A DNA stretch of 64,000 nucleotides from Chrysomallon squamiferum (lineage: Eukaryota > Animalia > Mollusca): the NCBI GenBank assembly GCA_012295275.1, contig CM022679.1, positions 27,714,001 to 27,778,000 on the forward strand. The letters run 5' to 3'. A model generated the notes under the pieces. That model worked only from the letters and a program-made list of their open reading frames with translations, ran no database searches and had not been told where the DNA came from. Made by a program: the position numbers and the translations under genes. Positions 35,301 through 41,300 of this stretch are shown one piece after another; the stretch's first letter is position 1; every line of letters starts with the position of its first letter.

Positions 35301-38300
35301 GGTTTTAACATCTTCTTACCTGTCTGTCTTTTGTCTGCATATAATTTTGTCTCTCTGTGTCGCAGATAATCTTTATCTGTGATTATCTTTAAGCCTTTTT
35401 CTCTCAAGTCCCTTGTGTCTGTGTGAGCTAGCGTCTGTCTTTCTGTGTGTATGTCTATAGAAACATGTGTTTATGTGTTTCCGTTTTTCTGTATGACGTT
35501 TCAGTCTCATATAGTAAAATATATATTAATGAAACACTTTACTTCTTTCAGGCGAAGGACGAAAAAGAGTTCAGTTCTCTATCGGCAACAGCAGTGAATA
35601 TTCTCTCAAAGTGGTTGAGGCTGACATCGTCGACCTCGTTGGGACAATCAAGAGTCCAAAGGGTCAAACCGAGCCATGCATCTTGAAAAAGCTGAGCAGT
35701 GGCGAGCTGGGTATATATATATATTAATTTAGTTTTGAATGTCTGTAAATGACTTCTTAATTAATGAATCCAAGACAATTTGAACAACTGAAATATTGAA
35801 ACCATATTTTCCTCTGACTTCGAGTCAGTGATCATGTGAAATCGCGGTAACTCACAATCTGATAACCTATACGAAGGGCGAAACATAATTACTGTAAGAT
35901 GCCAACAGCACCAGTAACAAGGGCACGACATCCATTACTTACGGCAATATCTGTATTTAATTTTTGTTATTTCCATGTATCTCGGTTTACGTTGCCTAAT
36001 CAAAACTTCTTTCAGCGATTGCTTCATTCACGCCTCACGAGCAGGGAGACTTCATCATCAGCGTGTACCGCAACGAGAAGCACATCAAAAACAGCCCGTT
36101 CAAAGTCCACGTCGGCGACAAGGAGATGGGTAATGCTGCCAAAGTCAGCGTCACTGGCGCCACCAATAAAGCGGTGGCGAACAAGGGCAATGAACTTGTC
36201 ATCGACACAAACGGAGCAGGTGAATACTTTTAGCGACTGTCTTGTTTCACGTCTTCTGTGTTCAACAAAACCACTAGTGACACTGACCATGTTTCTCTTA
36301 GTGTCTGAGGTTTGACAAAATCACTAGTGACACTGATTAGTTTCTTTCTACTTTATGGTTTGATACGTATTTACCAACAGCAAGACAAGCTGTACGCGCA
36401 CGTAACAAAAATAAACAATACTGACTTTGATATCCATGGGGACGGAAAAAAAACAACCAGATATCTTGCTTCACAATGAAGCAATAGCAGACATTATTTG
36501 TCAGAAAAAAATAAGTAGATGAAATACATTAATAACTATTATTACATTAATATTATATTTTAAGATCATGTAAGATTTTGTTTATCTAATACACGTAAGT
36601 TATATTAATGAAGGATCATCATATAAGACATTCATTTTCCACAATATTATTTTTATCTGAGGTAACTTTTCGTTATACTTTTTTCACATTTTATTTTTGA
36701 TTTTCTTACTGTCTTTTTTATCAGTTAGTTTACTTGGATTTTTTTTACTGCTGATCTCTTTCGACTTTTTGTACTCTATAGTAAAAGATCATCGTTATAA
36801 GTGTGCAAAACATCAGCCTATTCGAATCATGCCGACTGACCTCAGTAATGACGATTATATCGATATTGCTGCCAGACAACGATGTGCTATAAAAATTCTC
36901 AACAGTTTACGCTGGAGACTTCAACTTTTATTTCTAACATTAACACAATAAATTTTCTCTGTTGTAGAAATCAGCCGGTATTTTAAATAATACCGCAATA
37001 CATATACATGACATTAGACATGGAGCTTGTATTTTTTTTATTTCAACACGACGAATAATTTATTAACTGTCGATGTCAAGCTGTATTTTTAACGTTATTA
37101 ACACAATAAACTGACTTAGACTACAATCTGTATGTTTGACATTACAACAGGTTACGGAGCTCTGAGTCTGTCCATCGAAGGTCCACATCGTTCTGACATT
37201 GAATGCGTACACTCGGAGGGGCGGAAGTACACCATCCATTACTCGCCTCACGAACCTGGCATCTACATTCTCAATATTAGGTTTGCTGACGAGCATATTC
37301 AAGGTGCGTGCTGTCCTGCGATTTAATACGAGGTTTACAATATCAAACGTTGAACAAGACATTTTATTGTTATCCATGAAAATTGTATAAGATAGTTTTG
37401 TCTATCTTTCTGTCTTTCTGTCTGTCTATCTGTCTGTCAGGCTAGCTAAGCCATACATAATGACTTTATAATAATAATAATAATAATAATAATAATAATA
37501 ATAATAATAATAATAATTATTATTATTATTATTATTATTATTATTATTATTATTATTATTATTATTATTATTATTTATGACATTTTGAAATGTAATTTTT
37601 TCTTTCATCCAGCTAACATTAATCACTGTAATGGCTTACTGCTTAATATCTTAATAAAATTTTAGTAGAAATACAGAGAGATAAAATGAAACAAGAAATG
37701 ATAAAAAAAAAAAAACTGCAGCATATATAATTCACAAACCATATAATTTTCAAACGTTCTTACATAAACTCTCACATATGCGAGCGCGCGCTTACACACA
37801 GAGCCCAACAGACACACATACACACGTGCACACACACACGCACACACACACACAGGCACGACATACACTCTCGCTCACACACACACACACAGGCACGACA
37901 TACACTCTCGCTCACACACACACACACACATGCACGACAAACACTCTCGCTCACACACACACACACACACACATGCACGACATACACTCTCGAGCTCACA
38001 CACATATATAAATACAGTGATGTTATATAAATCAGCAGGTGACAGCTCAGAAATGGTAATAAAGAATCATGAACCAATAACATTTCTCGAAATCTTGTAA
38101 AATATTCGTGAATTAATTATGGCAGCCATTAGGAAGAGAATGACTGGATTATGTAATAACTTCGCTGGTACATTAGTAAGTATGGAACATTCCATATTAA
38201 TATTATTTTTGTGTTAACTATGAATGAATGGATGGATAGATGATCGGATAATGCAAACGGAATAATTCTGCACTGCTGAATGAATATTTAAAATTGTTAT

Positions 38301-41300
38301 TGGAAAAGATAGAAATCTATTGCTGAACACGTTAACAATTTTTCAGAGTTTCCTCTTCATTTCTCACCTTTTATAACACCCTCCATCACCATCTGTTCCC
38401 CACAGTTCCACTCTCCTTTGCACCTCTTGCCGTCTTGTTTACAGGAAGCCCGTTTCTGCTAGATGTGGTGGGAGACCCTTCGGGTCGGATTCGCCAGACG
38501 GTAGTCAAGGAGATGAAGACATGCGAGGCACAGCCAATTAACGAGTTGTGTCAGGTTATTCTACAGCTGCCTGGTAAGATGTTACTATAGAAACCATTTA
38601 GTAGTTGTGTCGCTTCATCTAATATCACTGTTTATTACAGGAAGTCCCTTTCTGATAGACGTGGAAGGGGAACCTTCTGGACGAGTTAGGGAAACAATTA
38701 CACGCGAAATGAAAACCGCAAGTGCAGTCCAACCCAACACTATGTGCAAATTTCTTTTATGCATTCCCGGTGAGTGACGTCGTCATATTCTGCATCCAAG
38801 AACCTATATCCAGTAACCGGCACTATTTATCTCAGTATGCACGTGCTGGTCACTCTTCTTGCACGTGCTGGTGTCTGGAATGCACGCACCAGCAATACTT
38901 CTGCATCCAAACTCTCTCGAAACAGTATTTGGAATGGTTACCAAGGTTCAGCCATATAATAATTTTGTTCTTCTCACAGTGATATACCGTACTGCCTGCT
39001 CCCGACATCGGTGGAATTACCATTGTTTACATTTTATATATAATTTATTTATTTCTTTATTCGTTTAACTCATACAGCTTATATTGTCTTTATTAACAAT
39101 ATGTGGATTTTATAATTAAAAAATTCTGCAAGCATTTCAAGTTCATCTTGAACAAAACTGAACGTATAACTACCATACAATTTATTATTTAATTATAAAC
39201 TTTATTTGCAATAAGCTTAGCATGATCGTACTAAAGCATGATCAAGTTAACAAGAAACTAACTACTGAAATACACACTTAACATCTTAGTTTATATAACT
39301 AATCATTTCCTAATCAAATTTCTTCTATCTAATCAGTATTAAAAAAAAAAGTGTATACATCGTTTTTGAATAATGAGATGATATGACTAATATTCTTATT
39401 ACTAAAGATAAAGTCGTAACGATTGGCTAGAATTGTTTATAAGTACTGAAAGAATAAATTTGACTGGTTTTTACTCAACGCTAATTTTATCATTGTTATT
39501 GTTTTTTTAAATTGCTACGAACCCTTTTATAAGTGTATAAAAGTATATCTATTGCATATTTTAATTCAGTAACAATATACTTTAGATATTTACCTTTAGA
39601 AAAATATATTTTATTTACAGTTTATTTTAATGAATTTTTCTTATGTTAACAATTAAGAATTAAACCATAGGTCCCAGATTTTTTTCTCTTATCTATTTTA
39701 TTTCATTTTATTTTAACTTTTATTTTTTATTGTTTATTCTTCTACGTTTTATATTATTATTGTTCTTTTTTATTTTCACTATTTATCTTCTTGTTTTTTT
39801 TACCTTTCGCAAAAAGTTGCAAAATGTCCTTTTATTATTTTAAATTTTATTTTATTTTATTTCTTATGAATGATATTTGTTTTCTTTCAAAGAAATGTTA
39901 GTTTTGTGTTAGATTATTATTATTAATATTAGTATTAATATTTGTTAACTATAGAAAATTAATTATTATAATTTAATTAACATGTCTAGTAACAATTTTA
40001 ATTCGATTATTATTATTATTATTATTATTATTATTATTATTATCATCATCATCATCATCATCATCATCATCATCATTATTATTATCATTATTATTGTGTT
40101 TGTTATTATTGTCTTTGTTGTCATTTGTATAATGGTTGATGTTGCAGTTATAGTTACGGTATGCTATCGTGTACTTCCTTTGTGCGTGTCTAAAAGGACA
40201 ATGTCAGATATACTGGTATACATTAATGTCGTCTCTAACTAAACAGGTACAAATCCTTTCGACATGGAGGCCTCAGTGGCTGACCCAGACGGCACAGTGG
40301 AGCTGTGTGAGGTTCTCGACGAGGATGACTTCCACTACCTGATTCAGTTCACACCCAAAGTGAACGGTGTCCACACCCTCAGTGTCAAGCATAAATCCAT
40401 GCACATATCAGGTACGTGAATCAATACAGGTGAGTGGATGGATGGATGGACGAATGGATGAATAAAGAAATGGATGGGATTAAAAACATTTTAAAAAAGT
40501 GAATGAATTAACACATCAGTGAGTTTAAGTTAATTAGCGTTTTTGAGTAAGGAGTGAATGAGTGAATGAATGAATGAATGAATGATGAAAGGACGAAATA
40601 ATCGATGAGTGCATAAACTACTGATAGGAGATATAACATGTTTTACACGTGAAGCTTTGTGCAGTAGTAAATCTTCTCTGCGTGTTGTGCAGGCAGCCCA
40701 TTCCAGTACACCGTGGGGCAGCTCAGCTCGGGCGGCTATCACAAAGTACAAGTCGGCGGACCGGGGCTGGAGCGAGGGGAAGTTGGCAAAAAAAGTGAGC
40801 AAAATAACCTTATTAATAGTATTATTATTAGTATTAGTATTAGTATTATTAGTATTAGTATTAGTATTACTATTATTATTATTACTATTATTATTATTAT
40901 TAGTAGTATTAGTAGTATTATTATTAGTATTATTATTAGTATTATTAGTATTAGTATTAGTATTATTATTATTATTATTAGTAGTAGTAGTAGTAGTAGT
41001 ATTAGTAGTATTATTAGTAGTATTATTATTAGTATTATTATTATTAGTATTTATATATTATTATTACTATTATTATTATTATTATTATTAGTAGTAGTAG
41101 TAGTAGTATTAGTAGTATTATTATTAGTATTATTATTATTATATTAGTATTGTTATTAGTATTATTATTATTATTATTATTATTATTATTAGTAGTAGTA
41201 GTAGTAGTATTAGTATTATTATTATTATTATTATTATTATTATTATTATTATTATTATTATTATTAGTATTAGTATTAGTATTAGTATTACTATTATTAT

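Follow-up and report, generated by a model that had tools for sequence, protein, structure and literature searches.

Exons A and B of a filamin gene

The stretch of DNA analysed here, referred to as the window, comprises 64,000 nt of contig CM022679.1 from the vent snail Chrysomallon squamiferum (assembly GCA_012295275.1, positions 27,714,001 to 27,778,000 of the forward strand). It carries a filamin gene in which two exons of equal length, A and B, are separated by an intron (M) of 67 nt. A preliminary description of the window had proposed that competing RNA pairings of this intron choose between the two exons. Our analysis confirms A and B as tandem duplicates and supports their use as alternative exons of filamin. 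The parts of the gene that concern the pair are as follows.

37151..37303, + strand: upstream constitutive filamin exon (Ig19-like), from translation and RNA joints; 44/50 residues identical to Gigantopelta aegis
38345..38444, + strand: pyrimidine-rich stretch preceding exon A (74% pyrimidine; the four other acceptors measured, 51-55%)
38445..38573, + strand: exon A, 129 nt, phase 1-1, spliced onto the upstream exon in a single RNA contig
38574..38640, + strand: inter-exon intron M, 67 nt, from sequence; unspliced in RNA contigs of runs X8 and X9
38641..38769, + strand: exon B, 129 nt, phase 1-1, with more RNA support than A here (joint from the upstream exon in X8 and X9, joint to the downstream exon in X8)
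40247..40411, + strand: downstream constitutive exon (rest of the Ig20-like repeat), from sequence and an RNA joint; 51/55 residues identical to G. aegis

Further along the gene, one exon shares 93% identity with a filamin-A-like protein of G. aegis, compared to 64-75% for the other full-length mollusc matches. The G. aegis orthologue has 875 residues and can be placed on the window at approximately 23400 to 45474. A domain search of that protein found 9 filamin repeats and no match to an actin-binding domain. Residues 278-562 of its isoform X1 align with Ig19-21 of human filamin A (2J3S; E 2e-78). When compared with 2J3S directly, exon B alone aligns with residues 86-126 (E 0.027), a 41-residue stretch across the Ig19/Ig20 border; a protein search using exon B alone gave no match. 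The human var-1 form lacks 41 residues at this place, including the first strand of Ig20, which blocks ligand binding by Ig21 (PMC1948075; here and below, statements from cited papers refer to the available parts of those papers). Judged by these alignments, the exon pair matches the stretch that holds the auto-inhibitory strand of human filamin.

Exons A and B have the same length and phase, and 23 of their 43 residues are in common (53% identical). All four possible joins (A alone, B alone, A plus B, and neither) keep the frame. The reading frame therefore provides no exclusivity and a physical block is needed, which rules out frameshift followed by decay as the source of exclusivity.

Both copies are present in a second species, G. 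aegis, whose RefSeq isoforms (locus of XP_041363463-5) contain either a B-type segment (X1) or an A-type segment (X2 and X3). Exon A shares 29/43 residues with X2/X3 (tree support 96/92), and exon B shares 33/43 residues with X1 (tree support 99/98). In the tree, which was built on 43 columns, A of the window groups with A of G. aegis and B with B, while most other forks are open. This grouping indicates that the duplication is older than the split from G. aegis. To survey isoforms, 93 of the 94 listed cluster members were examined, a 111-residue fragment being omitted; three clusters were listed in part, with 15 of 17, 15 of 152 and 15 of 18 members. Both anchors were present in 87 rows, none of which had a doubled or missing segment. 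The remaining 84 anchored rows show one version per species, with 18 species represented by at least two rows. Hence the duplication seems to be missing from the other annotated molluscs, with the proviso that annotations can overlook exons. No further A-type protein was found among 39 matches to the G. aegis A region, six of which, unnamed or new, were inspected in the tree.

Two marine metagenome contigs (L001 and L002) encode a filamin, 65% identical, that has a single exon with the same borders at this place. Searches of metagenome contigs for orthologous intron DNA gave 393 pattern matches via the A/B alignment, 0 of which were confirmed, and 5 loci via the upstream exon, with filamin only in L001 and L002. 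The same search returned only two bacterial chance loci from genome contigs and nothing from viral contigs. Contigs of run X10, from another organism, had no long match on the exons. A DNA contig of run X3 covers 37983-39829, differing at 1 place and showing no gap. An assembly error confined to the window therefore does not account for the layout, though the X3 run may be the window's source.

Three further observations concern the exons. The duplicated exons diverge faster from G. aegis (67% identity for A, 77% for B) than the flanking exons do (88% and 93%). A candidate decayed third exon copy at 38782-39250 was rejected, as 110 and 153 of 500 shuffles scored equally well. A serine of exon B at the position of a human phosphorylation site is not kept in G. 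aegis B and was dropped.

RNA evidence for exon use comes from contigs of two shallow runs, X8 and X9, and contigs lose rare forms. The upstream exon is joined to B at a depth of 21.3 in X8 and 3.9 in X9, and B is joined to the downstream exon in X8 (depth 11.6). The joint between the upstream exon and A is found in one X8 contig (depth 7.09, 24 letters on the short side), which continues through the unspliced 67-nt intron into exon B. Retention of M introduces an in-frame stop five codons after A. Joints from A to B, from A to the downstream exon, or from the upstream to the downstream exon (skipping) are not listed in the X8 and X9 contigs, which is no proof of their absence; both libraries also contain unspliced RNA or DNA pieces elsewhere. 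Together, the G. aegis isoforms and the lack of a listed A-B joint support the use of exons A and B as alternatives.

Branch points and the length of the inter-exon intron

Branch-point motif candidates in M lie at 38617 and 38622, which is 43 and 48 nt from the exon A donor. A third candidate, at -7, is too close to the AG. For exon A, the only branch motifs are distant (38359, 38366 and 38373, at -72 to -86). A steric limit of approximately 50 nt from donor to branch point has been described (PMC7969005), and this limit has been applied to 57 human clusters, 9% (PMC5740500). Short introns have modes of 96.7-105 nt in Aplysia, Crassostrea, Biomphalaria and Octopus, compared to 268.7 nt in Lottia and 89.4 nt in human (PMC6157073 supplement, in rows whose column header was taken from the adjoining sub-table). 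With candidate branch points less than 50 nt from the A donor and mollusc modes near 100 nt, the 67-nt intron is likely too short. We put the probability that the exclusivity of A and B stems from the shortness of this intron at roughly 0.55.

If steric exclusion operates as in vertebrates, U1 and U2 would be unlikely to occupy the 67-nt intron together. The choice would then be a competition between two acceptors, with exon B as the default. For exon A to be used, a splicing protein would probably have to free the long pyrimidine tract and the distant branch point that precede it; exon A does look regulated at its acceptor. The upstream pairing described below may add a co-transcriptional bias against A, unnecessary for exclusivity; the pairings tune the A/B choice at most. 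The gene would thereby encode, in two versions, the strand shown in human filamin A to block the ligand site of Ig21.

Complementary elements in the flanking introns

38014..38057, + strand: upstream element U, complement of 38593-38631 in four helices, from sequence; -30.1 kcal/mol
38620..38631, + strand: shared site that can pair with U or with D, overlapping the best branch-point motif, from sequence
38976..38985, + strand: downstream element D, 10-bp complement of 38622-38631 (with 5 bp more at 39003-39007), from sequence
39279..39288, + strand: competitor that had gone unnoticed, 10-bp complement of the exon A donor region 38575-38584, from sequence and fold probabilities

All eleven stretches named in the preliminary description lie where it had placed them, and the inter-exon intron (38574-38640) has the length that it gave. 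As it had described, the upstream pairing consists of four nested helices (12+8+3+7 = 30 bp, 4 of them G-U) and closes a loop around exon A, the downstream match (38976-38985 plus 39003-39007) closes a loop around exon B, and both overlap the best candidate branch-point motif of exon B. The duplex energy of the D site is -19.4 kcal/mol, compared to the -30.1 kcal/mol of the upstream duplex. The strongest single helices between M and each flanking intron are the upstream 12-bp helix (-13.7) and the downstream 10-bp helix (-11.5), both of which use 38620/22-38631. As a multi-helix duplex, the D site is not the best in the downstream intron (-22.5 elsewhere), and 38272-38282 is also complementary to M (-11.7).

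Within the window, the 10-letter pattern of these sites is present 3 times, clustered within 1 kb and with every copy in the required orientation. Shuffled sequences contained it 0.68 times on average and 0/100 reached 3, for a pattern that was taken from the sites themselves. Its 8-letter core is at chance level (4 observed, 3.89 expected). U and D have little self-structure. D overlaps a strong-looking sequence that resembles a 3' splice site (38964-38979), and no splice joint to this acceptor-like site at 38979 is listed in the RNA contigs.

Other features of these introns were also noted. Parts of U have further complements at 39016-39024 (9 bp) and 37622-37629 (8 bp), which could compete with the pairing of U and M (U:M). 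The segment 38770-39030 has a G+C content of 40-49%, compared to 13-29% in the rest of the intron, and contains two exact direct repeats (13 and 12 nt) and 4 YGCY motifs; a regulatory block and an inserted fragment are both conceivable. The sole Rfam match was a weak one to mir-297 (28 bits vs 90), and it fell on the CA satellite.

All statistics on the pairings were picked after the pattern had been seen. As an unconstrained duplex, the upstream pairing was equalled by 52/526 shuffles. Its 12-bp helix was equalled by 431/6939 shuffles and 8/88 real decoy stretches, and its compact duplex by 13/295 shuffles (18/453 with microsatellites removed). Furthermore, 9/166 segments of the window pair with M as well as U does, and the nascent-fold count was reached by 31/295 and 16/152 shuffles. 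The downstream 10-bp helix was matched by 1720/6939 shuffles and 35/88 real decoys (32/152 in another null), and the best unconstrained downstream duplex by 395/526 shuffles. Both pairings fell on one site in 144 and 204 of 6939 shuffles, in 5 and 9 of 88 real decoys and, with microsatellites removed, in 5 and 10 of 453. The number of shared bases was reached in 10/152 shuffles, and all three counts in 3/152. The resulting p-values are approximately 0.04-0.10 upstream, 0.25 downstream and, depending on the null, 0.01-0.10 for both on one site. Compared with shuffled controls, the energies are slightly better than chance upstream and at chance downstream. Neither pairing on its own stands clearly above chance.

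In folding models at 37 C, the probability (P) of U:M is 0.92-0.99 in RNAs ending by 38780. It varies from 0.04 to 0.97 for RNA ends at 38850-38920, and is 0.00-0.09 from 39000 to 39350; a series at 15 C covers 7 folds. The pairing of D with M (D:M) has P <=0.02 wherever the upstream intron is present. When the upstream exon is joined to A and the RNA ends at 39030-39050, P of D:M is 0.90, 0.81 and 0.64 at 37, 25 and 15 C, and drops to 0.00-0.04 when this intermediate is lengthened to 39350. Forcing D:M in the A-spliced intermediate costs 0.1-3.9 kcal/mol. In the longest intermediate fold, 39279-39288 pairs with the A donor instead (P 0.78-0.86; 0.0 in another fold set). The models suggest that both pairing states are possible in the order that a switch would need, and that neither is robust.

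For the bidirectional switch of the preliminary description, two routes are conceivable, both of which we regard as doubtful. U would pair with M during transcription and loop out A, leading to the use of B. Alternatively, A would be spliced first and U removed, after which D would take the M site, hide the branch point of B and loop out B. The exons are indeed alternative, and the folds give the predicted order, with U:M in nascent RNA (P ~0.97) and D:M after removal of the upstream intron (P 0.90 in the A-spliced intermediate at 37 C). The two best helices share one site, the 10-letter pattern is found at three places, the joint nulls are low (144/6939, 5/453, 3/152), the self-structure of U and D is slight, and the greater RNA support for B fits an earlier and stronger pairing of U. 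However, each pairing alone is at or near chance, that of D at chance (1720/6939; 35/88), 5 and 9 of 88 real decoys match the joint result, and the 8-letter core has its chance frequency. The folds also collapse when the stretch is lengthened (D:M <=0.02 with the upstream intron, 0.00-0.04 in longer folds), and the short intron could account for exclusivity by itself. Moreover, U:M covers the branch point of exon B, so the upstream pairing should hinder the exon that it should select; such masking suits D:M, which should repress B, and not U:M. With U bound, B could be used only if the helix were unwound or if a branch motif at 37998 served instead. When U:M is formed, this motif is ~25 unpaired bases from the AG of B, and the next AG (38016) is inside the helix. 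The motif sits at the end of a CA-rich satellite with further copies of it inside, and its use as a substitute branch point is speculation. We think it unlikely that one 12-nt element is both the branch point of exon B and a two-way switch whose upstream partner supplies a substitute branch point 600 nt away.

A simpler possibility is that U:M alone is functional, looping out A with its branch point and donor and lowering its use, while D is a chance match and intron length gives exclusivity. The 30 bp in four nested helices, three of the controls (13/295, 18/453, 9/166) and the position of U:M as the most stable nascent RNA fold are consistent with such a one-way structure. We would not expect it to hold, given the other nulls (52/526, 31/295), the hidden branch point of B and the dependence on the folded end (0.04-0.97 between ends 38780 and 38920). 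The odds are about even that both complementarities are chance matches in AT-rich introns with no role in splicing, which is compatible with steric exclusion and differs from it only in denying the pairings a role. No single test fell below ~0.01 and all were post hoc, matches of similar size lie nearby (39279-39288 with the A donor, 38272-38282 with M), and the 9/166 segments that equal U in pairing with M are unrelated to it. Chance matches are harder to reconcile with joint nulls of 1-3% under shuffling and with folds that give both states in the expected order. Finally, the composite of A, the intron and B could be the main form of A here, in which case the stop would yield a truncated or degraded message and less filamin. 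The sole contig that joins the upstream exon to A does enter B via the intron (depth 7.09, compared to 21.3 for the joint to B), no joint from A to the downstream exon is listed, and the stop comes five codons after A. We consider this quite improbable: with unspliced RNA or DNA elsewhere in the libraries the composite is perhaps an intermediate, contigs lose rare variants, and G. aegis, which has models joining A to the downstream exon, conserves the coding sequence of A up to the final codon.

Several points weigh against explaining exclusivity by the short intron. The branch point is a motif prediction, the 50-nt limit comes from vertebrates, and the mode of intron sizes is not a minimum; no intron-size data were found for peltospirids. 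Two pairings that share one site are uncommon under shuffling (~1-3%). Since the two shallow contig sets list no joint from A to the downstream exon, full mutual exclusion in this species rests on the G. aegis gene models. Intron retention is equally explained by a pairing of D that hides the branch point of exon B.

Gene context and comparison with known systems

Around the exon pair, the window contains other features of the filamin locus. Molluscs have a stand-alone short filamin of ~830-875 residues (proteins P0001-P0134). A gene encoding an N-terminal SAM domain occupies 5600-8572 on the minus strand and is arranged head to head with filamin, so that neither an actin-binding domain nor the first 15 repeats could fit into the window. 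The exons of this neighbour resemble a sphingomyelin-synthase-related protein. At 34664-35317, there are ~7.7 tandem copies of an 86-nt unit (96-99% matches) that runs from the 3' end of one filamin exon through the donor site into the beginning of the intron, resulting in several identical donor sites in series. At 34400-34558, there are ~3.9 copies of a 41-nt unit that includes the acceptor of this same exon together with its first few bases. Thus, both ends of that exon have seeded tandem repeats.

We found no literature that combines filamin, mutually exclusive exons and RNA pairing, in a search that most subscription papers lie outside, and the titles and abstracts found do not mention this exon pair. 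FLNA, FLNB and FLNC are not mentioned in the text and one supplement of PMC8373072, nor is filamin in PMC7895826; the G. aegis isoforms are already in RefSeq. Within the literature searched, a shared-element switch would be new for filamin and for a mollusc.

What our results establish firmly is that the exon matching the filamin auto-inhibitory strand has undergone a lineage-restricted duplication. The split of C. squamiferum from G. aegis is dated to 116 million years (range 71-184; PMC7895826), and two swappable versions have apparently been kept since before it, at a site that humans tune by skipping. A and B offer a natural comparison by which to test the control of ligand access by the auto-inhibitory strand. 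Should the two-way pairing be real, a mollusc would be added to the cases of bidirectional RNA control over exon choice, and a single shared element would double as a branch point. Such a switch would pick between two versions of the force-sensing strand of filamin in vent snails, with a simpler design than that of Drosophila serpent (srp). Otherwise, the exon pair is an ordinary one, enforced sterically.

In the Dscam1 exon 6 model, many exons share one docking site, each exon has its own selector, and the evidence is conservation. The snail pair lacks this many-exon layout. What the two have in common is a long-range intronic pairing proposed to expose one variant (PMC8042237); in coleopteran Dscam1, exon 9 has two docking sites (PMC8042237). 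The geometry in the snail differs from both Dscam1 exon 6 and srp. Exon 4 of srp (Yue et al. 2016, PMC4691838) also involves two exons, with upstream and downstream pairings that loop out the first and second, respectively. However, the srp mechanism relies on four conserved elements, including two distinct ones within the inter-exon intron, and has been proven with compensatory mutants (PMC4691838; PMC6071210), whereas in the snail one shared site (38620-38631) serves both pairings and overlaps the branch point.

Human ATE1 exons 7a/7b (elements R1, R3 and R4; Kalinina et al. 2021, PMC7797038) likewise have one central element with two competing, look-alike partners, and the pairing hides 3' splice signals (PMC7797038). 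In ATE1, R1 and R4 are duplicated stretches just before each exon, with R4 before 7b (PMC7797038). In the snail, D follows exon B, U precedes A by ~390 nt, and the central element itself holds a splice signal. The snail layout matches none of the compared pairing systems exactly and its pairings do not stand clear of chance, and we therefore do not class it as a member of any of them.

At the protein level, the exon pair resembles var-1 of human filamin A/B in the place and size of the 41-residue deletion (Lad et al. 2007, PMC1948075; PDB 2J3S), except that humans skip the exon (PMC1948075), while these snails appear to swap two versions. At the level of splicing, OGDH exons 4a/4b (PMC7969005) and the human clusters (PMC5740500) share with the snail pair tandem duplicates, a predicted branch point less than 50 nt from the donor and no need for frameshift protection. 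OGDH differs in having distant branch points in a longer intron, whereas in the snail, an invertebrate, the branch point is predicted and the whole intron spans 67 nt.

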